A stretch of 64,000 nt of DNA from the NCBI GenBank assembly GCA_964562615.1, contig CAZLUD010000002.1:89300-153299 (forward strand). Direction: 5' to 3'. A model generated the notes under the pieces. It saw only the letters and a list, made by a program, of their open reading frames with translations. It ran no database searches and was not told the DNA's origin. Positions 2,508 through 63,479 of this stretch are shown one piece after another. Source of the DNA: an uncultured Candidatus Saccharibacteria bacterium (GTDB lineage: Bacteria > Patescibacteriota > Minisyncoccia > Phycocordibacterales > UBA12088). The position numbers and the translations under genes are program-made. Within the stretch, counting starts at the first letter, position 1; each line of letters begins with the position of its first letter.

Positions 2508-3596
2508 CTAGTGTACTATGAACCCGCCTCCAACACACCGTGTATTGTCGTATAAGACGAGTGCCTGCCCCTCGGGGATGTGCGGTATTGGTGTTTCTAG
2601 GCTTACCGTGGCACTTTCTTTCGTTACAGAGGCAATAGTGCAAGGAAATAACGTTTGTCTGTGGCGCAATCTTGCCTGTAGCGTGTCTCCAACTGAAGGG
2701 GTCGCATTTATCCAATTTGCCTCGGTAATACTAATCTTATGATGATCATATTGTGGAGTAAGGTACCCAACTTCATCACTTACGACTAAAATATTTTTTT
2801 CTACATCTTTACTAACCACAAAGTATGGTTGTTGATTATGAGAATGAGTCTTCGCTGTAAACCCATGCCGTTGTCCAACAGTATAAAAAAGAGCTCCATC
2901 ATGTGTACCAATCTCCTCACCGTGTTGATTGACCACCACCCCCTGCGTAGCGGTGACAAAATGTGACAAAAATTCTTTAAGGTCTATATGTCCAACAAAA
3001 CATAATCCTTGGCTATCTTTACGTGCAGCACTAGGAAGATGTACTGCTGCAGCCATTTCGCGTACCGCATCTTTGGTCATGTGCCCAATTGGAAATATGA
3101 TGTGTGAGAGTTGTGCCTGGGTGAGTGTCCAAAGAAAGTATGTCTGATCCTTGTTTTCATCAACACTTCTATGCAACTCGTACTCGTCTGTGCTTGTATT
3201 CAGCCTTCTTTGTGCGTAGTGGCCAGTTGCTACCGCGTCAAATCCTTTTAGAAGTGCATGAGAAAGAAATGCGCCAAACTTCACTTCTTTGTTGCATAGC
3301 ACGTCTGGATTTGGTGTCTTTCCGGCACGGTACGCTGAAATCATATAGTCAACCACTTCCCTTTTGTACGTATCAGCAAGGTCAATAGTACTGCATGGTA
3401 CATCAAGGTGCGCAGCGACCTTGATGGCATCTTTTCTGTCCTGCTCTTGTGAGCATGGCAAAAAGTCAGGTTGCCAGACTTTTATAAAACCAGCATGTAC
3501 ATCACTCCCTGCTTCTTTGAGTAAATACGCAGAAAGCGAGGAGTCTACTCCCCCAGATAGTCCTACCATTATTTTGCTCGCACCTATTTTTGACAT
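2508..3596 (-). CDS. mnmA: tRNA-specific 2-thiouridylase MnmA
   Basis: PP-loop 'VGLSGGVDSS' plus the 'NPDVLCNKEVKFGAF' and 'KDQTYFLW' motifs. The length of 362 aa is typical. Confidence 0.9.
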   Translation of the reverse strand: MSKIGASKIMVGLSGGVDSSLSAYLLKEAGSDVHAGFIKVWQPDFLPCSQEQDRKDAIKVAAHLDVPCSTIDLADTYKREVVDYMISAYRAGKTPNPDVLCNKEVKFGAFLSHALLKGFDAVATGHYAQRRLNTSTDEYELHRSVDENKDQTYFLWTLTQAQLSHIIFPIGHMTKDAVREMAAAVHLPSAARKDSQGLCFVGHIDLKEFLSHFVTATQGVVVNQHGEEIGTHDGALFYTVGQRHGFTAKTHSHNQQPYFVVSKDVEKNILVVSDEVGYLTPQYDHHKISITEANWINATPSVGDTLQARLRHRQTLFPCTIASVTKESATVSLETPIPHIPEGQALVLYDNTRCVGGGFIVH

Positions 3597-3653
3597 GCCG
3601 TTTATTGTATTACATAATCGAAATCAGGAAAGACCCTGTCTAAGGAGGACACT

Positions 3654-3821
3654 ATGTCTGTTTATCAACTCGCAGATATTTTACTTGTGGCGCTTATTTT
3701 GGCAGTGCCTGCCTTTATTTTACGTTTTGCCGTTAAGTGGTGGCTCCAACCAAAAAATGGAGAGAATAGCGTAATTGCTTGGTACACACCACGGCGCACT
3801 CTTGATGATGACGACTGGTGA
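3654..3821 (+). CDS. Small membrane protein of 55 aa, missed by the ORF track
   Basis: A strong SD 'TAAGGAGG' sits 5 nt upstream of the ATG at 3654. The protein MSVYQLADILLVALILAVPAFILRFAVKWWLQPKNGENSVIAWYTPRRTLDDDDW has one TM helix. Confidence 0.45.
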   Translation: MSVYQLADILLVALILAVPAFILRFAVKWWLQPKNGENSVIAWYTPRRTLDDDDW

Positions 3822-3920
3822 AATATGCTTCTACTCAGACATAGAACTCTTGCAAGTAAGAAACTTTCTTGTATAACAATACCAGCAAGACACTTATGTC
3901 TTGAGTCACGGAGAGTCGCC

Positions 3921-4049
3921 ATGGACTATGTCGGATTACTTGGAGCGTGGGGACCAATTGCATTGGTGGTTGCGCTATTGCTTGTTTATATTATTCAACA
4001 CGTAAGGAAACCGAGGCGTGATATTTATGGAGAAGAGCGCCATCACTAG
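3921..4049 (+). CDS. Small membrane protein of 42 aa, missed by the ORF track
   Basis: SD-like 'GGAGAG' lies 5 nt upstream. The protein MDYVGLLGAWGPIALVVALLLVYIIQHVRKPRRDIYGEERHH has one TM helix and is followed by a terminator. Confidence 0.35.
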   Translation: MDYVGLLGAWGPIALVVALLLVYIIQHVRKPRRDIYGEERHH

Positions 4050-4061
4050 AGAGGTATTGAG

Positions 4062-4091
4062 ACCCCCCGCGCATTGCGCGGGGGGTTTTGC
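4062..4091 (+). terminator. Rho-independent terminator
   Basis: GC-rich hairpin ACCCCCCGCGC-att-GCGCGGGGGGT followed by TTTGCTT. Confidence 0.7.
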
Positions 4092-5087
4092 TTAATCAAG
4101 ATGTAGTTGCCTGTTTCGTATGTGTCCTGCAAAGGTGCTGCTGTAATACATTTTTCCGTCATCACCGGTAAGATAAAAGAGATAATTGGACTTTGTTGGA
4201 GTAAGTACCGCTTCAATAGATGAAAGTCCCGGGTTGGCGATTGGTCCAGGGGGTAATCCTTTGTATTTATAAACATTATACGGCGAATCAACCTCAAGGT
4301 CAGAGTGTAAAGGATGAAAGGTTTTGGTACGCTTTATATACCCAAATACCGCATCAATTTGAAGCGGCATGTTGATTGCCAGTCTGTTCTCAATAATTCC
4401 AGCTATAACCCGTCGTGTTTCTAATTTTCTTGCCTCCTTTTCTACAAGTGACGCAATAGTGAGTATTTCATTTACGCTATAGCTTGAACTCGCCATAAGA
4501 GGTGCCAAATGCTCTGTTCGTACATAAAAGGTGTTTTCCATCTCACGCACAATTTTTTTAGGTTTATCCGTAGGGAGGAAAAAATATGTATCAGGAAAAA
4601 GATACCCTTCTTTCTTTTCTGCGAGGGTAAGAAACTCGCCGGCATTAAATGCGTAGAGTGACTTTTCTAGGATGTTTGCTATTTGATACGACGTAGCCCC
4701 CTCTGGAATGGTCACCTTAACAGGATGAATACCAAAGTCACCGGTAAGTATTCGTATGGCTACGGTATACGCACCCACAGGAGCATGAAAGGCATAGTCA
4801 CCTGCCTTGAGTGTGCTTGGATCCCCCACTATTCGAACAAGTACATCAAACACCACGGCGTACCGTACAATACGCTCTTCTTCTAGTTGTGTCGCAATAC
4901 TTGAGAGTGTCCCGCCCTCATCAATAGTGATAATAGTACCTGATGGAAATGCGCTTGGTGGGCCAATAGTAAGGTACGCGCCAAGCACAAACACACATAC
5001 AACGGTGCCAGCATAAAAAGGAACGGTAATTGGTATCGCTTTGAGCCACAATAGCCAGGTGATAACTCGAGACTTTTCCATAGACAT
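4092..5087 (-). CDS. mltG: Endolytic murein transglycosylase MltG (YceG family)
   Basis: N-terminal TM helix and YceG-like domain with the hallmark 'YNVYKYKGLPPGPIANPG'. Confidence 0.9.
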   Translation of the reverse strand: MSMEKSRVITWLLWLKAIPITVPFYAGTVVCVFVLGAYLTIGPPSAFPSGTIITIDEGGTLSSIATQLEEERIVRYAVVFDVLVRIVGDPSTLKAGDYAFHAPVGAYTVAIRILTGDFGIHPVKVTIPEGATSYQIANILEKSLYAFNAGEFLTLAEKKEGYLFPDTYFFLPTDKPKKIVREMENTFYVRTEHLAPLMASSSYSVNEILTIASLVEKEARKLETRRVIAGIIENRLAINMPLQIDAVFGYIKRTKTFHPLHSDLEVDSPYNVYKYKGLPPGPIANPGLSSIEAVLTPTKSNYLFYLTGDDGKMYYSSTFAGHIRNRQLHLD

Positions 5088-9902: not shown

Positions 9903-10868
9903 TTACATCTTTACGTCGTAACGCTTGGGGTCAATAACTCTGTCAAAACATGTTCTTCCTTCTTTATGAGTCCATGTCTCATTAGCAAATGGTGAAGTTT
10001 CGTACAGACGAGCATCCATTTGAGATGACCTATCTGGTTTGTTAAAGGTTGCGCAAAGTGAAAATGTAAGAGGAGTAGTGACGATATACTCGTATACCTC
10101 TCCAGTTTCTGGATCAATTGGGGTAATAAATCCAGTCATAGGATCACTAAGTACATCAAGTGATGCAGGAAGTGTTTCGGTGGTTTGCCAGTAGTTTAGC
10201 ACTTGCCATTGAATGTTCTGCAAATCAATTACTTTTTGTTCATCAAATCGATAGAGACGCTGCTCGCTAGGTGAACCCATAATAAAGAATCCAAGCACAA
10301 CAGAGAGCACCACTACCGCGCCTGCGACTGACCCGTATAGTACAGATGCAGTTTTTCGCTCTTCCCAATATCCTTTGAGTGCAAGCACAAAGTAGGTAAA
10401 TACAGAGCCAACAACCACAAGAACAGCAAGTACTTTAGAAATAAACGCAACGGTGATATCACCAGCAAGGAAGCTATTAACTAGTACAATCAAATCAATA
10501 ATCATTGTCGCGCCAGCAATGAGGAGGGTAATATAGATAAGCCATTTTCTATAGCCAAGTTCAGCCTTTTCCTTGTGCGCTCTTATGTCGTTATTTGTAT
10601 ATCGAGTGAGTGCGATAAAGAGTGGAAATACCACAAACAATGTTGCAATCGATGTACGCATTGCGGTTGAGTATGGATCAACATAGGAAAGCTGATCAGG
10701 AAAGAGAAAGCTAATGTACTCAAAAATAAGTGCAAGAAATGCAAACGTGCTCACATAGAGTGAAATCATGAGCGATGAGTAGACCACAAAATCCTTTGGA
10801 CTAAGAGTTGGTTTTTCTCCACTAAAAAGAGCTGTCATAATGTGTAGCTTACTACTAATGATGTACAT
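9903..10868 (-). CDS. Polytopic membrane protein, possibly DUF5671-like
   Basis: About six TM helices followed by a C-terminal soluble tail. No catalytic motif. Confidence 0.5.
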   Translation of the reverse strand: MYIISSKLHIMTALFSGEKPTLSPKDFVVYSSLMISLYVSTFAFLALIFEYISFLFPDQLSYVDPYSTAMRTSIATLFVVFPLFIALTRYTNNDIRAHKEKAELGYRKWLIYITLLIAGATMIIDLIVLVNSFLAGDITVAFISKVLAVLVVVGSVFTYFVLALKGYWEERKTASVLYGSVAGAVVVLSVVLGFFIMGSPSEQRLYRFDEQKVIDLQNIQWQVLNYWQTTETLPASLDVLSDPMTGFITPIDPETGEVYEYIVTTPLTFSLCATFNKPDRSSQMDARLYETSPFANETWTHKEGRTCFDRVIDPKRYDVKM

Positions 10869-10950
10869 AATTGTACAATGAAAATCAAAAAGAGCAACTT
10901 GTCATTGTGTGTATTTGTGGTGAAGAAAAACTCATCAGATTAAATGTTGG

Positions 10951-10984
10951 TAAAAAACAGGAAGCCTCCGTTTCCGGAGGCTTC
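10951..10984 (-). terminator. Rho-independent terminator, bidirectional in appearance
   Basis: GAAGCCTCCG-tttc-CGGAGGCTTC hairpin. It is flanked by an A-run on plus, which is a T-run on minus. Confidence 0.7.
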
Positions 10985-10998
10985 TGTGCCGAATATTA

Positions 10999-11244
10999 CT
11001 AATGTTTTTGTTTCGATAACATTAATACAGCAACATGAAATATAGTTTTTGGAGCAAAGACAATACGTAAGCAATGTAGAAGTATTCTCTGTATCTTCCC
11101 TACCTTTCCAAATTTTCTCTCTATAAGCGAATCATATTCGCTCCTAAGTTCTCTTATACATAGATAAGAGATTACGCAGAGGAAGAAAGCGCAAAAGACT
11201 AACGCAACGATTATTGCAAGAATTGCTTCTACAACAGCAAACAT
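10999..11244 (-). CDS. Small membrane protein of ~81 aa
   Basis: The internal ATG at 11244 has the SD 'AGGGGG' 6 nt upstream. MFAVVEAILAIIVALVFCAFFLCVISYL forms one TM helix. Confidence 0.4.
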   Translation of the reverse strand: MFAVVEAILAIIVALVFCAFFLCVISYLCIRELRSEYDSLIERKFGKVGKIQRILLHCLRIVFAPKTIFHVAVLMLSKQKH

Positions 11245-11386
11245 ACTCGCCCCCTTCGATGACCAACTGCACAAGTTATAACATCAAAGCAGAGAGTGTC
11301 AATATCACCGTAATTAGTTTAGCCCTGTAATGGCTCAACTCTTTGGATGCTGCATGACGCAATATCATTTTGCAACAATAATTGCT

Positions 11387-13786: not shown

Positions 13787-14317
13787 TTATGAGTCAAGCG
13801 TTGCTCGTTTGAGTGCTTGTTGATAGCGATCTACATACAGTATTTTAACGAGTCTAAGGAATACTGCAAACACCCCAACAAACAATACGTAGTATCCAAT
13901 CCATGAAAGGTATGGAAGTTCGTACGCTTTAAGGGTGTTGACTATCGCAAGGGTATACCACGACCCGCCCGCAATAGCAGGACCAATAATCATTGGCATA
14001 ATATGCAACTGCATGAGTGTGGCATTGACGATAATCACCGCAAGAATTGTCCACATTGCCCAAAAAGCACCATTAACAAGTGCTTCCAAGCTACTAAATT
14101 GGTAGTACCACACCACAAACAGTAGCTGCGAAATAATGATAAGCCCCATGCCTATGCGCAGCACCGCATATACCGTGTGCAAAAATGATTTTTCCGACGC
14201 GTCAATTACCCCATCTCTAATAGACTTGTAATAAAAAATTAGTGCAAAGGTGGATGAACCAATAGCAACAGATATGCCAAAGGTTTGAAGCACCTGCAAT
14301 AGTACGTACATACTCAT
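13787..14317 (-). CDS. Hypothetical polytopic membrane protein
   Basis: 176 aa with 4-5 predicted TM helices. Confidence 0.45.
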   Translation of the reverse strand: MSMYVLLQVLQTFGISVAIGSSTFALIFYYKSIRDGVIDASEKSFLHTVYAVLRIGMGLIIISQLLFVVWYYQFSSLEALVNGAFWAMWTILAVIIVNATLMQLHIMPMIIGPAIAGGSWYTLAIVNTLKAYELPYLSWIGYYVLFVGVFAVFLRLVKILYVDRYQQALKRATLDS

Positions 14318-14341
14318 GGATATATTCTACCCCGAGTAGTG

Positions 14342-14635
14342 CTATTGTTCCATCATTTTTTTCAACTCCGCCTGATGTTTTTGCATTACCGACATCATGG
14401 CAGTAAATTGGTCTACGCCACTTTTCTTTTTCTCCTCTACCTCTTTAGCTATTTGCTCAAAGAGTTTTGGATTCTTCTCTACCATGAGCATGATTTTTTC
14501 TGCCTGATCTTTAGGAACATTTTTTAGCTGACGCTCCATCAGTTTTCTCATCAAAAAGTTTTTAAGCATAGAATTGTTTACACTAGTACAGATTGGTAAC
14601 CCCCGTAGTGTAGCAAAGGAGTTTGTGTATTGCAC
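14342..14635 (-). CDS. Small Met/Lys-rich hypothetical protein. The true start is probably the internal Met of 'MLKNFLMRKL'.
   Basis: Open ORF with no motif recognised. Confidence 0.3.
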   Translation of the reverse strand: MQYTNSFATLRGLPICTSVNNSMLKNFLMRKLMERQLKNVPKDQAEKIMLMVEKNPKLFEQIAKEVEEKKKSGVDQFTAMMSVMQKHQAELKKMMEQ

Positions 14636-14700
14636 CTACATCCAAAACTTTGACTTATTAGTAGATACATTGTATAGTTATACGGCTCTAAAATTACATT

Positions 14701-16326
14701 ATGTTAAAAAATATACTTAATTCGTTTATCTCATCTTCACTTACTCGCAAACACATGTACGCGGGTCTCGCGGTGCTTGTTGTTATCATATTCCTTGTCC
14801 TTATCTTTAAAAAGGATGCACCTGTCGAGATTACAAAACAAGAATCTAATCGTACTGTTAGTATAATGGATGTTGCATCGCTCTCTAGCGAAGCTACTCC
14901 TCTACCCCTTATAGGAGAGGTGCGCTCTCAAAATGAAGCCATCCTTCGTACAGAATCATCAGGCACCGTAACTGCTGTATACAGAAAGGCTGGTGACTAT
15001 GTGGCTGCCGGCACGGTAATTGCTGAGCTTGAAAACTCTGCACAGCGCGCATCAGTTGCGCAAGCGCGTGCCCTCGTCTCGCAAGCAGAGGCATCACTAG
15101 CCAAGGTGAAAAAAGGCGCGCGTGATGAGCAACTTGCTGTGCTTGGTATCAGCGCAGAGAGTGCAGAGACTACCCTACGCACTGCAAAACAACAAGCGGT
15201 AAATACCGTGCTTTCATCATATGCTACTGGTGAAGATGTAGTACTACGCACCACTGATAAGCTGGTATCAAATCCTACATCAGCAAGTCCAACATTCATT
15301 CTTGCTACATCTGACTCGCAGCTTTCTACTAATATTGCTAATGCGCGCCTAACGATAGAGGGCAGGCTATCTAACGCCACTGCCATTAAAGACTCGCTAC
15401 GTGCTGATACTAATATACTGGTTGCGATAAGTGCGGCAGAGGCAGATTTGTCATACATACGAAATTATCTTGATACTATTGCAAGCGCGCTTGCTAAAGC
15501 TATTCCATCAAACACCGTTACCCCTGCCATTATTGGCGGATACCAAGCTGAGGTTTCTTCAGCTCGAAGCGCAATCATCGGGCAACTATCTACACTCGCT
15601 GCCGCTAAACAATCTATTGAGGGTGCGGAAGCTGGTCTAAGTATCTCTCTCCAAAATCAAAGCGAGATTGTCTCTGGCGCACGAAGCGAGGATGTCGCCC
15701 TTGCAGCAGCTGGTGTTGAGCAGGCACAAGCAGGACTACGCGCTACTCTTGCCCAACTTGAAAACACCATTATACGTACACCAATAAGTGGCCGTATCGC
15801 TTCTCTATCACTCACCCGAGGCGAATTTGCATCACAATTTTCTCCTGCAGCAATCGTATCTAATCAAAACGCTCTCGAAATAGTCTCGTACATATCTGAA
15901 GGTGAGCGCGAAAATATCGCCATTGGCGCAAAAGCACTTATTGAAGAAGAGGTGCGTGGTGTAGTAACCGGCATTGCTCCAGGGCTTGATCCCGCAACAA
16001 AAAAGATTCGCTTATCAATTGGAGTCACCGATGAGGGAGCCCCACTTACCCACGGATCATCAGTCTCACTTACCATCGAGCGCTCACGCCCTGCCGTAAG
16101 TGAAAATATTACCGATATCATCATTCCTATATCTGCGCTCAAGCTTACCGTCGATAAAGCTATTGTCTTTAGTGTTAACCCTGAGGGAATCCTTACTGAA
16201 CACCCTGTAACCATGGGTAGAGTCCTTGGAAACAAGGTTCATATTGTAAGTGGTCTCACTCCTTCAATGATTATTGTGGTTGACGCAAGAGGACTCAAGG
16301 CAGGACAAGTAGTAACCATACAATAA
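14701..16326 (+). CDS. Efflux transporter periplasmic adaptor (membrane-fusion protein, HlyD/AcrA family)
   Basis: N-terminal TM anchor, a long Ala/Ser-rich coiled coil, and the C-terminal beta-domain 'IRTPISGRIASLSLTRGEF'. It sits 4 nt upstream of the RND gene. Confidence 0.8.
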   Translation: MLKNILNSFISSSLTRKHMYAGLAVLVVIIFLVLIFKKDAPVEITKQESNRTVSIMDVASLSSEATPLPLIGEVRSQNEAILRTESSGTVTAVYRKAGDYVAAGTVIAELENSAQRASVAQARALVSQAEASLAKVKKGARDEQLAVLGISAESAETTLRTAKQQAVNTVLSSYATGEDVVLRTTDKLVSNPTSASPTFILATSDSQLSTNIANARLTIEGRLSNATAIKDSLRADTNILVAISAAEADLSYIRNYLDTIASALAKAIPSNTVTPAIIGGYQAEVSSARSAIIGQLSTLAAAKQSIEGAEAGLSISLQNQSEIVSGARSEDVALAAAGVEQAQAGLRATLAQLENTIIRTPISGRIASLSLTRGEFASQFSPAAIVSNQNALEIVSYISEGERENIAIGAKALIEEEVRGVVTGIAPGLDPATKKIRLSIGVTDEGAPLTHGSSVSLTIERSRPAVSENITDIIIPISALKLTVDKAIVFSVNPEGILTEHPVTMGRVLGNKVHIVSGLTPSMIIVVDARGLKAGQVVTIQ

Positions 16327-56275: not shown

Positions 56276-58558
56276 TTATTTTGCGTATTTGAGACCCTCC
56301 TCAAACTTTACCGAAAGCAGCCTCGATGCCCCATCAGCGCCCATAGTGACCCCGTACAACACCCCCGCTCTACTCATGGTCTCGCGGTTATGAGTGATAA
56401 GTATGAGCTGAGAATCCTTCGCAAGAGTCTCAATCATATCCCCATATCTTCTTGAATTTGCTTCATCAAGAGCAGCGTCTGTCTCGTCAAGAATAATAAA
56501 CGGTGGTGGATTTACCCTACTCATCGCAAAGATAAGTGCAATTGAGGTAAGCGCCCTCTCGCCACCAGAGAGCATCTGAAGGCCTTTAATGCGCTTATTT
56601 GGAAGCGCTACTGACACCTCCACCCCTTCTTCGCTCTCATCTAGTCCCTCAGCAGTAGGCATAGGTCCTTTGTCGTCAGCATCCTCAAGTACCACGTCTG
56701 TATCAATACGAGAGCGCTTTTTTTCTTTTACCACCGTAAGACCAGCCGACCCTCCGCCAAACATCAGGGTGAAGAGGGTATTAAACTCTTTAGAAATAGT
56801 CGTAATTCCCTCTTTGAACTTTTCATCAAGCTTAGATTCTAAATCCTTTATGAGTCCCTCAAGAGAGTGTACCGTGGCTTCAAGATCGGCAATCTCTTTA
56901 AGTAAAAATTCTGCTCTTCCATGCACCTCTTCGTATTCTTTCATTATCTCATCTGCGTTAGCGCCACCAAGCTCCTCGAGTCGAATTTTTAACTTCTCAA
57001 GGTGACGTCTACGTTCATATTGCACATCTCGTGCTTCAGCCACTATCTCATCATCTGTAATTGGCGTGCCATCCTCACGTAACAGCTCTGTCTCTTCAAA
57101 ACCACGTACTGCATGCCCTATCAATACCACCGCTTCTCGTACTTCGCGTTCATACTCTTCGGTATCCCTCTTATGAACCAGTTCTTTTGTTTTAATTTTA
57201 TCTATAGTGGCACGCAACTCTGTTTGTCTTGCCATGAGACGAAATACTTCTTTTTCTGCTTCTCTTCCTTCATTGCGTTCATTCTCAATATCTTTCTCGA
57301 GTTGTTTATATGATTGATAGACACGCTCTTCACGAGCAGCAAGTGTTTGGAGTGCGTCTTTTAACGTTTGATGTCGCTCAACTAAGCGTAGGCGCTCTTC
57401 CTCATCTTCTTTGTGATGATCTTCTGCGCCTCTGTGATCGGTAATAAAGGTGGCGATAATTTCTTTCGCTCTTGCTATAACCTCTCGCAACAATGACGCC
57501 TCTTTTGCTTCAGCTCCTTCAAAGAGCGTGGTGATATTTTCTGCAAGAGTCTCTACTCGCGAAAAGGCCACCACCGTATCGCTCCCCATCCTCTCTTTAG
57601 CCCGCTCTATGCTATTTTCTAGACTCACAATCTCTCCTTCTAACCTTCCTATCATTCTGTATTGCTCGTCCTTTTCTTTGCGCACCTGAGCTATTTCGCT
57701 TTCAAGCGAAAGGAGCATGTCGCTTTTTTCATCATGATGACCATTAGTCTCAAGTGTGTGACGCGCGCGCTCGATATCCTTCTCACACAGTGCAAGCTCG
57801 TTAGTAGGTCCTTCAAGATCGCGAGCGAGTATTGTACGCTCACGCGCAAGATACAACGCTTCTCGTTTTAAATATTCTCGTACATCCTTTGCGAGTGATT
57901 CGCGTACCTCTTTTGCTTTTTCAAGTTTTTTTACTTGTCGCTCTAAAAACCGTAGGTGCGGTTCGATTTCTTTTTGCAAGGAAAGTATGTGGGCTTTGTT
58001 TTCGTTTGTCTTTTTTAGCTTTCGCTCGCTTTCTGTTTTTTTGTATTGAAATACCTTAAGACCTAGTGCATCCTCAATCATGAGGCGACGATCCTTTGGT
58101 GGCGCAGACAATATTCTGTCTGCCTCCCCCTGAGAGATGATATGGTGTCCACTTGGGCCAATATTAGCCCCCGCAAGAAGCTCGATGATGTCTTTGAGTC
58201 GTACTACCGAACCATTCAATCGATACTCATTAGTGCCATCTTTATATACCACCCGTTCAAGAGTTACCTCATCAAAATCTATAGCTAAAAATCGTTTAGT
58301 ATTATCAAATACCAATGTTACCGATGCGCGTCCCTGTCCAGGGATTGCCTGTGTTCCAGAAAATATCAAATCCTCTCCCCGCTTTCCTCGCATCGATTTA
58401 AATGATTGTTCACCAAGTACAAATCTAAAACTCTCCGCAAAATTACTCTTGCCTGACCCATTAGGGCCAACGATAGACGTGATTGGTGAGGTAAACTCAA
58501 ACTCCGTTTTTTTTGCAAACGATTTAAATCCTGTTATTTCGAGAGAACGAAGGTGCAT
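56276..58558 (-). CDS. SMC-family chromosome-segregation ATPase, short form of 760 aa
   Basis: N-terminal Walker A 'GPNGSGKSN'. The C-terminal ABC signature is 'LSGGERALTSIALIFA' and Walker B is 'FIILDETDAALD'. The coiled coil is about half the length of canonical SMC and no obvious hinge is present. Confidence 0.75.
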   Translation of the reverse strand: MHLRSLEITGFKSFAKKTEFEFTSPITSIVGPNGSGKSNFAESFRFVLGEQSFKSMRGKRGEDLIFSGTQAIPGQGRASVTLVFDNTKRFLAIDFDEVTLERVVYKDGTNEYRLNGSVVRLKDIIELLAGANIGPSGHHIISQGEADRILSAPPKDRRLMIEDALGLKVFQYKKTESERKLKKTNENKAHILSLQKEIEPHLRFLERQVKKLEKAKEVRESLAKDVREYLKREALYLARERTILARDLEGPTNELALCEKDIERARHTLETNGHHDEKSDMLLSLESEIAQVRKEKDEQYRMIGRLEGEIVSLENSIERAKERMGSDTVVAFSRVETLAENITTLFEGAEAKEASLLREVIARAKEIIATFITDHRGAEDHHKEDEEERLRLVERHQTLKDALQTLAAREERVYQSYKQLEKDIENERNEGREAEKEVFRLMARQTELRATIDKIKTKELVHKRDTEEYEREVREAVVLIGHAVRGFEETELLREDGTPITDDEIVAEARDVQYERRRHLEKLKIRLEELGGANADEIMKEYEEVHGRAEFLLKEIADLEATVHSLEGLIKDLESKLDEKFKEGITTISKEFNTLFTLMFGGGSAGLTVVKEKKRSRIDTDVVLEDADDKGPMPTAEGLDESEEGVEVSVALPNKRIKGLQMLSGGERALTSIALIFAMSRVNPPPFIILDETDAALDEANSRRYGDMIETLAKDSQLILITHNRETMSRAGVLYGVTMGADGASRLLSVKFEEGLKYAK

Positions 58559-59285: not shown

Positions 59286-60200
59286 TTACCCTCGTTTTAC
59301 GAGAATATTTATTGCATTGGTGACAACGGGGAGTATATCGTTATAAAAATTAAGGTCAAGGATGTTTGCAAGCTTAAACCACTTTGCATCATCTAGCCCT
59401 CCCTTTTCTTCAAGAACCAAATCTACAAAAGGTGATTCGCCCAAAAAGTACGTAACCTGCTTTCGAACCTTACCTTTTTCTGGTGTAGTCGCCACATACT
59501 CATTTTGACCAAGCTTTTCATGGACCACTATATCAAGTCCAATTTCGTCTTTTATTTCTCTCTTTACGGCATCCTCAAGTGCGGTGGTGGTATCACCAAC
59601 ACTACCCTTAGGTAGTGTCCAATGACCAAATACATCATGGACAAGCGCTACGTACAAATCTTTACCGTCCTCAGCAAATACCACTGCGCCTACCTTGCGC
59701 TCAATGGGCATCTTATCAAACGGTACATCGCGCTTCTTTTTTTCCTTTTTGCCAGTTTCTGCTTTTCCTGGTTCACCAATTTCTTTGTATACGGCACCTA
59801 GTACTCCGTTTATAAATCTACCGCTATTCTCTCCACCGAAATTTTTTGCAAGTTCAATAGCTTCATTGATAGCAACCTTTGCTGGTACCTCGTTTCTGTC
59901 TGAAAAAAGTAGTTCGTATAGTCCTATGCGTAAAATATTTCTATCAATTGGAGCAATTCTTTCAATAGGCCACTCAGGCGCTGCCTTTGAGATAATATCA
60001 TCTATATCACGGCGCTTTTCTATGACTCCACGCATGAGTTTACTCATAAACGCCTGGTCGTTTGACCCTGGGGCAAATTCTTCTATGTTGCGGGCGAGCG
60101 CCTCGCGTTCGTCTATTTTTAGGCGACTATCATGCATTGCCTCATCCCACTCAAAGAGTGTTTGAAGAACAATCGATCGTGATAGGTGCCTATTTGCCAT
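59286..60200 (-). CDS. nusB: NusB antitermination factor fused to a C-terminal Nudix hydrolase domain
   Basis: aa 1-145 read 'VPAKVAINEAIELAKNFGGENSGRFINGVL', nearly identical to the NusB core. aa ~160-304 contain the Nudix box 'GSVGDTTTALEDAVKREIKDEIGL'. It is a single uninterrupted ORF. Confidence 0.85.
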   Translation of the reverse strand: MANRHLSRSIVLQTLFEWDEAMHDSRLKIDEREALARNIEEFAPGSNDQAFMSKLMRGVIEKRRDIDDIISKAAPEWPIERIAPIDRNILRIGLYELLFSDRNEVPAKVAINEAIELAKNFGGENSGRFINGVLGAVYKEIGEPGKAETGKKEKKKRDVPFDKMPIERKVGAVVFAEDGKDLYVALVHDVFGHWTLPKGSVGDTTTALEDAVKREIKDEIGLDIVVHEKLGQNEYVATTPEKGKVRKQVTYFLGESPFVDLVLEEKGGLDDAKWFKLANILDLNFYNDILPVVTNAINILVKRG

Positions 60201-60312: not shown

Positions 60313-60573
60313 CTACTTAGCAGTAGTTTTCTTTTCAGGGAGGCGTCCGTCAGCGATTGCTTTTTTCTCACTTGCTTTTGCGAGTTTCTTTTTAGAGGTG
60401 AGGGTAACGTCAACGATCATTTTACCTCGATAGTAGCCGCACTTTGAGCACATGGTGTGTCTTCGATATGGGCTTTTGCAATTTGTGCACGTAGAAAGAC
60501 GAGGTGCCAAAACGCGATGATGGCTCCTTCGTGCGCCAGTTTTTGCCCTTGTTGACTTCATTCGTACCGACAT
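60313..60573 (-). CDS. rpmF: 50S ribosomal protein L32 with a ~30-aa Lys-rich C-terminal extension
   Basis: 'RAKTGARRSHHRVLAPRLSTCTNCKSPYRRHTMCSKCGYYRGK' fits the L32 zinc-ribbon pattern. Confidence 0.85.
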   Translation of the reverse strand: MSVRMKSTRAKTGARRSHHRVLAPRLSTCTNCKSPYRRHTMCSKCGYYRGKMIVDVTLTSKKKLAKASEKKAIADGRLPEKKTTAK

Positions 60574-60600
60574 AGTGAGAAAGACTATACCCTAAAAGCC

Positions 60601-60634
60601 TAAAAAAAGCAAACCGGCACGCATTGCGTGCCGG
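60601..60634 (-). terminator. Rho-independent terminator
   Basis: CCGGCACGC-aat-GCGTGCCGG, followed on the minus strand by TTTGCTTTTTTT. Confidence 0.75.
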
Positions 60635-60667
60635 TCCAGCTCTTTTTGAGAATCTATTGTAGTGGTA

Positions 60668-60814
60668 TCAAGAATACCTCAACAAGCTTTGTCCTTTCCT
60701 ATTTCCACTTTTTGGTGTTTTTGACAGATTTACATACATTGTTGCTCTTGCGAGCACTTGTTTGAGTTTTTTTTCTTGCCTCTTCTTTTTAGGTAAGTTT
60801 TTTTCAACCTTCAT
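60668..60814 (-). CDS. Small basic protein of 48 aa, below the ORF-track cutoff
   Basis: SD 'GGGAGGT' lies 5 nt upstream of the ATG. The protein is MKVEKNLPKKKRQEKKLKQVLARATMYVNLSKTPKSGNRKGQSLLRYS. It is followed ~30 nt later by the terminator. Confidence 0.35.
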   Translation of the reverse strand: MKVEKNLPKKKRQEKKLKQVLARATMYVNLSKTPKSGNRKGQSLLRYS

Positions 60815-60949
60815 GAGAACCTCCCATGTCACACCGCCACAATTGACGGTTCCACGAAGTATTATGCAACAATAGAATATTTAATCAAGTGCAAAATGTT
60901 GAACAGTCTTAATTGCTTATTTCGTACTATGACTAATATAAAATTATCC

Positions 60950-61429
60950 TTATGTGATCTGCTTTTTGTACTCTGCAAATGTCCCCAACCCAAGATTTTT
61001 TCTTTTCTGATCTAAGGTTTCCATATCCACTATTTCAAAAAATTCGACAGCACCGGCAATTTTCTTGTACTGGGTTCCATATATCTGTGGCAGATTTTGC
61101 AAGATATTCACACGATCAATCAAATATGCAATATCACCCTGAATAGTCTCCTTGTTCGTTTTATCTTTGAACAGTTCTATAACATGCTTCATTAGCGTAA
61201 TATTATTTGAATGCTGTACAGCAAGAAAAGCAGCTCTATATGCCTTTACAGAATTTTTATCCAAAAACGGGAACCCGTGGTTAGTGATCAAGTTATTAAT
61301 ACGTAAAGCATTCTTAGTTTGAACTTCAATAAGTTTGAGTGATGTTATTTTTCCATTCTTAAAATCCTTAATCATTTTTTGATCCTGATCAAACAGCTCC
61401 TCAAGGATTTTTTCGTTTTCGTTTTTCAA
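60950..61429 (-). CDS. Hypothetical protein in the low-GC island. The start is uncertain: the track uses TTG, and an ATG at 61375 gives 141 aa.
   Basis: No TM helix and no motif. AT-rich codon usage, unlike the neighbouring genes. Confidence 0.45.
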   Translation of the reverse strand: MKNENEKILEELFDQDQKMIKDFKNGKITSLKLIEVQTKNALRINNLITNHGFPFLDKNSVKAYRAAFLAVQHSNNITLMKHVIELFKDKTNKETIQGDIAYLIDRVNILQNLPQIYGTQYKKIAGAVEFFEIVDMETLDQKRKNLGLGTFAEYKKQIT

Positions 61430-61449
61430 ACAATTTTAATAGTTACATA

Positions 61450-61493
61450 AAAAGACACCCTACATAGGCACTCACAGAGTGATTATATAGGGT
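61450..61493 (-). terminator. Terminator/attenuator hairpin between the candidate precursor ORF and the downstream genes
   Basis: On the minus strand the sequence reads ACCCTA-tataat-CACTCtgtGAGTG-cctatg-TAGGGT, followed by GTCTTTTTAT. Confidence 0.55.
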
Positions 61494-61517
61494 ATCAAGT
61501 AGAGCTACAACTCGAGG

Positions 61518-61703
61518 TTAGATGGTGTCACCGTCACCTGAGGCCTCGTTCAAAGTGTCCACTTCCGCTAGGAAATGGGGATTTTGTTGATCCTGAACAC
61601 TCAGAAGTGGATCCATGGCCTCGGCCCGCAAAAAAGTGATCGGCATTCGCGTCTCATCGATACGACCACCTGTCACCATGGCTTCGCATTCGGGGTTATG
61701 CAA
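61518..61703 (-). CDS. Candidate graspetide precursor peptide of 61 aa from a TTG start (53 aa from the ATG at 61679)
   Basis: SD 'AGGGGGTG' lies 6 nt upstream of the TTG. The protein is MHNPECEAMVTGGRIDETRMPITFLRAEAMDPLLSVQDQQNPHFLAEVDTLNEASGDGDTI. 'PITFLRA' is loosely similar to the microviridin leader motif PFFARFL. The C-terminal tail is rich in Thr/Ser and Asp/Glu, the residue types needed for omega-ester formation. It starts 32 nt after the ATP-grasp stop. Confidence 0.3.
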   Translation of the reverse strand: MHNPECEAMVTGGRIDETRMPITFLRAEAMDPLLSVQDQQNPHFLAEVDTLNEASGDGDTI

Positions 61704-61734
61704 GATTATCACCCCCTTTCACTCCACAAAGGTA

Positions 61735-62718
61735 TCAGCATGTCAACAGGTCTGCAAGTGCTTGTGAAATCGGCATACCTGCCACAAGCTCTGATGGAAC
61801 CCACTGTCCTTGGGGGTTTATTTCTAGAAAATAGTACTCGCCGTCACTTGAGAGGCACATATCAATCACTCCAAAGCGCAGTCCAAAATATTCGACATAA
61901 TCGCGACAAAGACACTCGAGGCCTTCTGGTAACCTGAATGGCTTGTAGATCCTATTAAGCTTGTGATTCCTCCAATCCACATTATCACTACCAGCACCAG
62001 CATCAGCATCATGATGTATGGAGACTGCAAAAACATTTCTACCTACGACGGTAATTCTTATGTCTATTTTTTCGACAATGGCCTCCTGAAAGATCACGGG
62101 GCAGTTTCTCACAAGATTAATATTTTCCTGAACTTCCTCAGGATTAATGATCCTTGTGTAAACAACCAAATCCTGATGATTTCCCTCAGGAGAAAACCTG
62201 AAATGACCAGTCCCGACAGGTTTCATTATGAGTCGCAAATCCTTGTTATTCTTGAGAAAATCAAGAACGACCTGAGGGTCGTTTGAAATTACAGTGCGAG
62301 GGATTTTGAAACCCATCTTCTTTGCGACCCTTAGCTGAAAAGGTTTACTGTTAGCGATTCGAGTGTTCTCTGGATCAGAAACCCACGTGACATCAGGCAA
62401 CAACTGGAATAAAGATCTGATGAAAACCTCGGACTCCGCTTCTATATATTTATCGAGTGGATCCGTGCTTACTCCTCGTAATTTACCCTTAGGTCTTCTC
62501 CACCAAACACCCGTTACGGTGTTACTGTCGAATCCCTGATCATCTTGCCGAAAGCGAACGAAAGGTTCTTCACAGGAATAGTCAATTGAGGCAACACTTT
62601 GCGAGGGAAACAGACTGAGATCAATCAAATTATACTGCTGATCCATCTCTCTGAATCTCTCAGACAATATTTTTGTAGTTCCATCATCGGCATGCGAGAT
62701 TACAAGGACAGTCTTCAT
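61735..62718 (-). CDS. ATP-grasp ribosomal-peptide maturase, microviridin MdnC/MvdD-like
   Basis: Collinear similarity to MdnC across the whole length. 'VTGVWWRRPKGKL' matches 'VSAVWYRRMRYGL', 'QEAIVEKIDIRITVVGRNVFAVSI...DNVDWRNHK' matches 'QENIPKALELRITIVGEQIFTAAI...IYDWRKEG', 'YVEYFGLRFGVIDMCLSSDGEYYFLEINPQGQW' matches 'LMKYFGLNYGAIDMIVTPDERYIFLEINPVGEF', and 'ISQALADLL' matches 'ISQAIAEIL'. Confidence 0.8.
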   Translation of the reverse strand: MKTVLVISHADDGTTKILSERFREMDQQYNLIDLSLFPSQSVASIDYSCEEPFVRFRQDDQGFDSNTVTGVWWRRPKGKLRGVSTDPLDKYIEAESEVFIRSLFQLLPDVTWVSDPENTRIANSKPFQLRVAKKMGFKIPRTVISNDPQVVLDFLKNNKDLRLIMKPVGTGHFRFSPEGNHQDLVVYTRIINPEEVQENINLVRNCPVIFQEAIVEKIDIRITVVGRNVFAVSIHHDADAGAGSDNVDWRNHKLNRIYKPFRLPEGLECLCRDYVEYFGLRFGVIDMCLSSDGEYYFLEINPQGQWVPSELVAGMPISQALADLLTC

Positions 62719-62769
62719 GGCGATTTCTACCTTCCTAGTTCCTAGGTTGAAACTTGTGTACCAAATTAA

Positions 62770-62797
62770 AAGTATAAAAATGAATAAGCGTTGTCAA
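62770..62797 (-). promoter_or_regulatory. Sigma-70-type promoter for the ATP-grasp operon
   Basis: On the minus strand, TTGACA-N16-ATACTT lies ~50 nt upstream of the ATP-grasp ATG. Confidence 0.45.
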
Positions 62798-62841
62798 CCA
62801 CTTAATGAAGTGAGTCCAGACCACAGTGCCGGGGTGAATTC

Positions 62842-63414
62842 TCAATGACAAAACGTAATTCGGTGTTGATTACTTATCCCATGCTTTCTTATCGCCTTTT
62901 TGTGCAATTTTGTTCCATATCCTTTATGGCGGGCAAATTGATATTCTGGATATACAGCATCAAGCTCAACCATATACGCATCTCGATGCACTTTTGCCGT
63001 AATAGACGCTAGCGCAATGCAGGCAACCTTTTCATCTCCCTTTATGATTGTTTCTTGTCGTGTGTACTCGCTCCCCGCTTTGATACCTCCATCAAGAACT
63101 ATCACGCAGCAAGCGGGGTCAGCAGATACCTTTTTAAGAACGCGAGCAATCCCCACTTTAACTGCAGATACTATTCCTTTAGTATCTATATGCTTGTTAT
63201 CTATGAGCGCGTATGCGCTTTGTATGTTGCTGTCTTGTTCGAGTTTTTGTAACCACTCCTCCCTCTTTTTTGGTGACAACTTTTTTGAATCCTGTATACC
63301 TTGTAGCCACGTAGGGTAATACTCTACACTCATTTTTACTGCTCCAACCGATACCGGCCCCGCAAGCGCCCCGCGTCCCGCCTCATCAATACCGACAATA
63401 TGGGTTACCCCCAT
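62842..63414 (-). CDS. rnhB: Ribonuclease HII
   Basis: 'IVGIDEAGRGALAGPVSVGAV' is the classic RNase HII N-terminus. The start is taken at MGVTH. Confidence 0.9.
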   Translation of the reverse strand: MGVTHIVGIDEAGRGALAGPVSVGAVKMSVEYYPTWLQGIQDSKKLSPKKREEWLQKLEQDSNIQSAYALIDNKHIDTKGIVSAVKVGIARVLKKVSADPACCVIVLDGGIKAGSEYTRQETIIKGDEKVACIALASITAKVHRDAYMVELDAVYPEYQFARHKGYGTKLHKKAIRKHGISNQHRITFCH

Positions 63415-63479
63415 TTTTTTGTACGCGCGAGAAAGTTTTCGATGCATAGTGTTCTGCTATACTACCATCACCACAATTC

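Follow-up and report, generated by a model that had tools for sequence, protein, structure and literature searches.

A putative three-gene graspetide cassette of the Patescibacteria kind between rnhB and rpmF

Genes of the cassette

The stretch of DNA analyzed here (the window; 64,000 nucleotides of contig CAZLUD010000002.1) carries on its minus strand, in order of transcription, rnhB, a gene for an ATP-grasp ligase, a small open reading frame (ORF), a 159-aa ORF, a 54-aa ORF and rpmF. The ligase gene, the small ORF and the 159-aa ORF, which belongs to the DUF6624 family, very probably constitute a three-gene cassette for a graspetide, an omega-ester peptide, of the kind seen in Patescibacteria/candidate phyla radiation (CPR) bacteria. 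A graspetide cluster had been put forward for this site in an earlier reading of the sequence alone (the sequence-only reading), and that proposal is now supported by the scores of the ligase against maturase models, by a precursor conserved in 45 of 45 loci and by the linked DUF6624 gene. These 45 loci were gathered from one genome and one metagenome collection and are those in which the ligase is at least 35% identical to that of the window. Most of them are from Patescibacteria, and close homologues occur in metagenome-assembled genomes (MAGs) labelled Taylorbacteria, Parcubacteria, Paceibacterota and Patescibacteria; judging from these labels, the host of the window is likely a Patescibacteria/CPR bacterium.

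The ligase gene (61735-62718, minus strand; identified by its ORF, hidden Markov models (HMMs) and matches to solved structures) encodes 327 aa. HMM scores are given in bits and are compared with curated TIGRFAM cut-offs or, for Pfam, with the gathering threshold. TIGR04187 (GRASP_SAV_5884) is the top match at 212.8 bits, followed by TIGR04185 (MvdC; 172.8 bits) and TIGR04184 (MvdD; 168 bits); all three align over the full length of the protein and fall short of their cut-offs of 350, 425 and 475, respectively. The grasp-with-SPASM model scores 74.5 bits, which is also below its curated cut-off, and the MvdD-type pre-ATP-grasp domain PF21068 is found above its threshold (35 vs. 27 bits). The TIGR04187 score is about 8 times that of RimK (27.4 bits; cut-off 143.4), and the GshB models reach at most 17 bits (cut-offs 272-408). 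The MdnC/MvdD type named in the sequence-only reading thus stands against the RimK/GshB models, with the full-length maturase-model matches, the PF21068 domain and the solved relatives all in agreement.

All six solved-structure matches to the ligase are graspetide-type ATP-grasp ligases, including MdnC, CdnC, MdnB and AMdnB; one chain among the six is presumably PsnB. A profile of 42 family members matches MdnC over its full length (E = 3e-55), and MdnC (5ig9) is the best solved match. The motifs Asp248-Trp249-Arg250 and Glu299/Asn301 (the ATP/Mg-binding E-x-N, in FLEINPQGQW) align with motifs of MdnC and are invariant or nearly so across the 42 members, and the window ligase retains all 38 positions that are invariant in this alignment. 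The 'DFR' motif, to which Asp248-Trp249-Arg250 corresponds, is critical for the activity of graspetide synthetases (Carter et al., 2026, PMC13097080). As the three TIGRFAM cut-offs are all missed, the ligase is assigned to a distinct clade rather than to the microviridin enzymes. A microviridin-type ligase was accordingly rejected as a candidate, the TIGR04184 and TIGR04185 cut-offs being missed widely and the motifs being different.

The small ORF (61518-61712, minus strand) has three possible starts, GTG, TTG and ATG, which yield 64, 61 and 53 aa, respectively. A strong Shine-Dalgarno (SD) sequence (AAAGGGGGTGA; 61709-61719) precedes the TTG at 61703 by 5 nt, the same SD occurs at the same spacing before the ATG of the precursor gene in two related loci (L007 and L008), and a homologue with 79% identity is on record in a representative library as a called gene of 61 aa. 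The product is therefore taken as the 61-aa peptide MHNPECEAMVTGGRIDETRMPITFLRAEAMDPLLSVQDQQNPHFLAEVDTLNEASGDGDTI (61518-61703), and family conservation together with this homologue identifies the gene as that of the precursor. The 61-aa sequence is too short a query for phmmer, which recovered just two true homologues from 1.84 billion representatives.

A leader motif, PITFLRAE, occupies residues 21-28 (61620-61643) and is kept across the family loci as P-[ILV]-T-[FLVM]-L-x-[AS]. The core peptide, EVDTLNEASGDGDTI, consists of residues 47-61 (61521-61565), and a C-terminus of the form E-x-D-T-x8-D-T-x-stop is found in all 45 loci. Among the 26 distinct cores in these loci, Glu at position -15, Asp at -13, Thr at -12, Asp at -3 and Thr at -2 (Glu47, Asp49, Thr50, Asp59 and Thr60 of the window precursor) are found without exception; Ser or Thr occupies position -7 in 23 of the cores, and 22 have Asp or Glu at -5. 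In 21 loci that were checked, the invariant residues are encoded by GAA or GAG, by GAT or GAC, and by three or four of the ACN codons, and Ser at position -4 switches between TCN and AGY codons. The use of synonymous codons at every invariant residue indicates selection on the peptide, not on the DNA. The sequence-only reading had singled out this SD-preceded ORF for its C-terminus rich in Thr/Ser and Asp/Glu, while observing that the core lies outside the microviridin pattern. Both statements are upheld: all 45 loci have the ORF, with its leader motif and five invariant core residues, and the core does not contain TxKxPSDx(E/D)(E/D).

A single disrupted copy was found, in a Lake Baikal MAG (L006, 5038-5230), where a frameshift separates the reading frame of the leader from that of the core, ETDTLDQGSSDSDTI; either the assembly is at fault or the gene is a pseudogene. 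In about half of the distinct cores, position -11 is Lys (E-x-D-T-K...), mostly accompanied by Pro at -9 and one more Asp at -6 (L016, L019, L021, L023, L052, L054-L059, L061, L062 and L067); the window core has Leu at -11. Judged by sequence, cores of this subtype could close a lactam as well as esters.

The DUF6624 gene (60950-61429, minus strand) is defined by a Pfam match, alignments and an AlphaFold2 (AF2) model. The sequence-only reading was correct as to the ORF but had left its product of 141-159 aa without a family; the 159-aa protein matches PF20329 (DUF6624) with 49.3 bits against a threshold of 27. Translation could start at TTG (159 aa) or at the ATG at 61375 (141 aa), and the start is uncertain; the invariant residues Asp16 and Gln17 are encoded upstream of this ATG. 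The protein has no signal peptide, as is the case for the CPR DUF6624 proteins in general. The AF2 model has a pLDDT (predicted local distance difference test) score of 95.8, and comparison with solved folds revealed no detectable similarity. A search with the single sequence returned only 5 matches, and a profile search was used for the wider family. Across 71 diverse DUF6624 members, Asp16, Gln17, His73, Asp105, Gln115, Gly118-Thr119-Gln120, Arg143 and Tyr154 are invariant or nearly so, a pattern that looks like an active site.

Conservation, mobility and surroundings

The three genes are tightly linked. DUF6624 is adjacent to the other two and co-oriented with them in 41 of the 45 loci, and three of the four exceptions are at contig ends; in the fourth (L056, 3736-6064), restriction endonuclease-like and methyltransferase-like genes on the opposite strand stand in the place of DUF6624. 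In loci where the ligase is at most 34% identical to that of the window, both the precursor motif and DUF6624 are absent. The gene order is ligase-precursor-DUF6624 in the window and precursor-DUF6624-ligase in three loci, and the trio therefore survives rearrangement.

The cassette also appears to have been mobile. Four other contigs (L001-L004; each at least 5 kb, different samples) contain an identical copy, and in no locus from another genome is the cassette accompanied by rnhB, rpmF or the NusB-Nudix gene described below. In the closest relative (67%-identical ligase, core EVDTFNAASGDGDTQ), it lies between unrelated genes. Given these differing flanks, the three genes have moved together, and the term 'insert' used in the sequence-only reading is supported. 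Only short chance matches were found in a search for delimiting repeats around the cassette, and neither an integrase nor a tRNA marking the insertion was found.

A hairpin (61454-61496) followed by UUUUU (61449-61453) lies between the precursor and DUF6624 genes (61449-61496, minus strand) and has the form of a terminator or attenuator. Its folding energy is -27.6 kcal/mol (z = -5.35; none of 200 shuffled sequences folds as well), and about 40 of the 45 loci, including those in which the gene order is permuted, have a hairpin with a U-run 3' of the precursor gene. The attenuator of the sequence-only reading is thus significant in the window and recurrent in the family, and its strong terminator at the end of the block is likewise confirmed: the closing intrinsic terminator upstream of rpmF (60600-60638, minus strand) contains a hairpin at 60610-60638 with a 13-bp stem and a U-run (-30.6 kcal/mol; z = -6.23).

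DUF6624 genes of the family loci have no SD, and synthesis of the protein is therefore probably at a low level. In many loci, a -10-like box (TATAGT, TATAAT, TACAAT or TAGAAT) ends 6-8 nt before the DUF6624 start; such boxes, seen in L009-L017, L021, L023, L026 and L129, lie about 20 nt upstream of the start and directly after the hairpin. This arrangement suggests that the gene may be transcribed from a promoter of its own into a leaderless mRNA. The box of the window (TAAAAT, in 61430-61445) has its end only 3 nt upstream of the assumed TTG, and the true DUF6624 start in the window is therefore uncertain.

In the spacer between rnhB and the ligase gene, a candidate promoter can be read from the sequence (62770-62797, minus strand), with TTGACA (62797-62792) and TATACT (62776-62771) separated by 15 nt. 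The TTGACA of the promoter given in the sequence-only reading is present; its -10 element, ATACTT with a 16-nt spacer, is out of register, fits TATAAT at only one of six positions and is better replaced by TATACT with the 15-nt spacer. A consensus scan, which needs a spacer of 16-18 nt, called no promoter at 62770-62797, and in the scanned region promoter-like sites are rarer than in shuffled sequence (3 found vs. 6.5 expected).

The mean G+C content (GC) of the window is 0.44 (standard deviation 0.028), with 0.43 in the ATP-grasp gene and 0.51 in the precursor gene. A GC of 0.34 is found in 60639-61429, which includes the lowest 500-nt windows of the whole stretch; other 500-nt windows with a GC below 0.37 are confined to 10751-11250 (0.356) and 14251-14750 (0.360). 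The low-GC block of the sequence-only reading is therefore to be narrowed to the DUF6624 gene and the spacer after it, and does not extend to the ligase and precursor genes. This AT-rich spacer (60639-60949, minus strand), delimited by its GC and lack of conservation, contains the 54-aa ORF (60668-60832), which the sequence-only reading counted, as a basic peptide of 48 aa, as the fourth gene of the cluster. The 48/54-aa ORF exists, but it gave no family match in HMM scans and, among the family loci compared, was seen in same-species contigs only. Neither the 311-nt AT-rich tail nor this ORF resembles the corresponding stretch in the closest relative, and the spacer is probably not part of the cassette. 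A scan of the whole window at the Rfam gathering thresholds gave no match.

The flanking genes rnhB (62842-63447, minus strand) and rpmF (60313-60573, minus strand; ribosomal protein L32) were confirmed by HMMs. The L32 protein has 86 aa; its L32 domain spans residues 6-54, and a C-terminal extension of about 30 residues, rich in Lys, comes after it. Further along, one ORF of 304 aa (59286-60200) contains a NusB domain fused to a NUDIX hydrolase domain, according to the Pfam families of an identical gene. An SMC-like ORF (56276-58558) encodes 760 aa from its first ATG and has an N-terminal Walker A motif and, close to the C-terminus, an ABC signature; typical bacterial SMC proteins are much longer.

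Proposed mechanism and alternative explanations

In the proposed mechanism, the 61-aa precursor would be translated from its strong SD, and the ATP-grasp ligase would bind the leader P-I-T-F-L-R-A-E. With ATP, the ligase is predicted to activate Asp/Glu carboxylates within the 15-residue core as acyl phosphates, which Thr (possibly Ser) hydroxyls would capture to form macrolactones. Since the core has two invariant Thr residues (Thr50 and Thr60) and three invariant acidic residues (Glu47, Asp49 and Asp59), the predicted minimum product is bicyclic, with a mass 36 Da below that of the precursor; Ser55 could add a third ester (-54 Da). The window core contains no Lys, and no lactam is therefore expected. 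The hairpin and U-run after the precursor gene would terminate or attenuate transcription. DUF6624 may be a tightly linked, enzyme-like accessory protein, possibly transcribed from its own -10 box, and its candidate roles are those of a tailoring enzyme, a ligase partner or a self-protection factor.

Several observations weigh against this reading. The ligase remains below the curated cut-offs of TIGR04187, TIGR04185 and TIGR04184, the candidate promoter is a partial match to the consensus, and the cross-link chemistry is here a prediction from genes alone. A regex screen of the 64-kb window for an ABC or peptidase exporter matched only the SMC-like gene, and with no peptidase or exporter in the cassette or the window, leader removal and export are unexplained. 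In addition, the DUF6624 genes of Shewanella, Pyrinomonadaceae and an archaeon stand alone, the 5 kb around them being free of ATP-grasp genes, so that the family is broader than graspetides and not dedicated to them. Among the stand-alone homologues examined (L043, L044/L045 and L046), those of Shewanella and Pyrinomonadaceae carry signal peptides, and the neighbours include genes for TonB-dependent receptors, an M1 peptidase and an A24 peptidase.

These facts about DUF6624 bear most directly on the possibility, doubtful but to be taken seriously, that the graspetide unit consists of two genes and that DUF6624, transcribed separately after the terminator, confers self-protection or resistance by binding or hydrolyzing the cross-linked peptide. 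The terminator that precedes DUF6624 in nearly all loci and the -10-like boxes 6-8 nt before its start would fit separate transcription, stand-alone homologues (two of three secreted) are what would be expected of a resistance protein, and L056 does without DUF6624. However, the lack of an SD and the upstream terminator argue for low expression, which is awkward for stoichiometric sequestration of a peptide, and ten invariant or near-invariant polar residues look catalytic. The one-nucleotide distance between the DUF6624 stop and the ligase start in L127, a locus treated below, suggests coupled synthesis, and Carter et al. (2026, PMC13097080) suggest that DUF6624 may be a biosynthetic enzyme.

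Doubts about the function of the cassette as a whole take two forms, and both are improbable. It is quite unlikely that the three genes are a silent or decaying remnant of horizontal acquisition with no product in this organism: the weak and uncertain promoter, the missing exporter and peptidase, the resemblance of the low-GC 3' part and the non-coding 311-nt tail to acquisition scars, the frameshifted precursor in L006 and the loss of DUF6624 in L056 could be so explained, but all three ORFs of the window are intact, the ligase and the precursor keep every one of their family-invariant positions (38 and five, respectively), and the identical cassette recurs in four contigs from different samples. 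Still less credible, to the point of being almost negligible, is a housekeeping ligase of the RimK/GshB kind, such as a ribosomal protein modifier near rpmF, with the small ORF beside it by accident. Its location between rnhB and rpmF and a JGI annotation as 'glutathione synthase/RimK-type ligase-like' speak for such an enzyme; against it stand the RimK and GshB scores far below their cut-offs, flanks that are missing in all other loci and a small ORF that is kept in every one. RimK-type identity was rejected on HMM scores and motifs.

The three-gene graspetide cassette thus remains the most probable explanation. Cassettes of this kind have been predicted before in published work; the locus adds a new member and perhaps a new subfamily of precursors. 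A further-reaching version, which is rather unlikely, would make the 45 or more loci with the core E-x-D-T-x8-D-T-x an unclassified graspetide group, with DUF6624 as a new tailoring or partner enzyme and a product that acts in CPR-host interaction. In such a group, the two Asp-Thr pairs suggest two esters of opposite polarity that staple a hairpin, and DUF6624 would be obligatory and cytoplasmic in CPR bacteria, with secreted, stand-alone forms in other bacteria.

CPR/Patescibacteria have tiny genomes with few genes for secondary metabolites, and a conserved, mobile cassette is therefore a plausible tool toward hosts or competitors. We know of no CPR graspetide that has been made or tested so far. 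The locus offers a compact set for heterologous expression, namely a 327-aa ligase, a 61-aa precursor and a 159-aa DUF6624 protein, with five residues to mutate. It is also a direct way into the function of DUF6624, which was flagged as a question by the 2026 survey (PMC13097080). The known distribution of graspetides is unchanged by it.

Relation to known graspetide systems

Graspetide clusters of CPR bacteria have been reported in branches 1 and 2 of the ATP-grasp tree, and all loci of branch 2, like those of branch 1, encode a 'cluster 23' protein in which His and Arg residues are conserved (Makarova et al., 2022, PMC8939145). In a survey of more than 20,000 predicted graspetides, DUF6624 was frequent in groups 18, 20, 23 and 42 and was considered a possible class of biosynthetic enzymes yet to be discovered; group 42 contains 22 biosynthetic gene clusters, many from candidate phyla, with a synthetase, a precursor and DUF6624 (81.8%) (Carter et al., 2026, PMC13097080). 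The rarity in such genomes that the sequence-only reading had ascribed to graspetides is outdated in view of the CPR clusters with DUF6624 in these two studies. In the window, the DUF6624 gene shares the directon of the ligase, as the cluster 23/DUF6624 gene does in CPR loci of branches 1-2 and of group 42.

Branch 1 provides the closest parallel, with the same three genes for a precursor, DUF6624 and an MvdD-type ATP-grasp ligase (Makarova et al., 2022, PMC8939145). The gene beside its precursor cluster1029 (P0200, locus L127; Parcubacteria GW2011 genomes) encodes a PF20329 protein, and the L127 ligase is 36% identical to the window ligase over its full length (E = 2e-65). The Branch-1 leader PLMFLFGE aligns with PITFLRAE of the window, and the cores share the form E-x-[DE]-[TS]...D-[TS]-x-stop. 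For the Branch-1 loci as for the window cassette, the products are predictions from genes alone. The two differ in gene order, which is precursor-DUF6624-ligase in Branch 1 and ligase-precursor-DUF6624 in the window, and in the Branch-1 core signature TxxxTx(6-10)Dx(1-4)D, as the window core has a single Thr before its acidic tail. In L127, the DUF6624 gene (3106-3609) stops 1 nt from the start of the ATP-grasp gene (3611-4603), a distance that suggests translational coupling of the two.

The published leader signature, Phhx(1,2)h within the first approximately 30 residues, is approached closely, not literally, by the window leader (Pro21-I-T-F-L, or P-h-T-h-h), and PITFL aligns column for column with PLMFLF and PLTFEF of published clusters. 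In the supplements of the two studies (PMC8939145; PMC13097080), of which key tables were available in part, 'PITFL' is absent, 'GDSDT' occurs only in unrelated Streptomyces peptides, and neither the exact core motif E-x-D-T-x8-D-T-x nor accessions of family members were found. The published core signatures and representative precursors differ from this motif. Group 42 is similar to the window cassette in its make-up of synthetase, precursor and DUF6624; its representative precursor, from Ca. Komeilibacteria (MKKNSTPKPLILDRLRQPIEDIYKGGEKAMEGFTTHGTPNDPDSGGTD), shares the general layout only, with 15% identity to that of the window.

The microviridins (MdnA/MdnB/MdnC; group 1) are comparable in ligase fold and predicted chemistry, in a C-terminal core rich in Thr and Asp/Glu, and in a leader with a short, proline-initiated hydrophobic motif. 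However, they use two ligases where the window cassette has one, and their PFFARFL leader, TxKxPSDx(E/D)(E/D) core, acetyltransferase and ABC transporter all have no counterpart in the cassette. A different likeness is provided by the rosaritide proteins MirB and MirC, where the synthetase is strictly linked to a small, conserved protein that is not a ligase (Carter et al., 2026, PMC13097080). MirC is a chaperone protein similar to SurA/PpiC, whereas the DUF6624 protein of the window has no detectable similarity to solved folds. By analogy, MirB/MirC may serve as a precedent for a DUF6624 protein that is needed for the activity or stability of its ligase.

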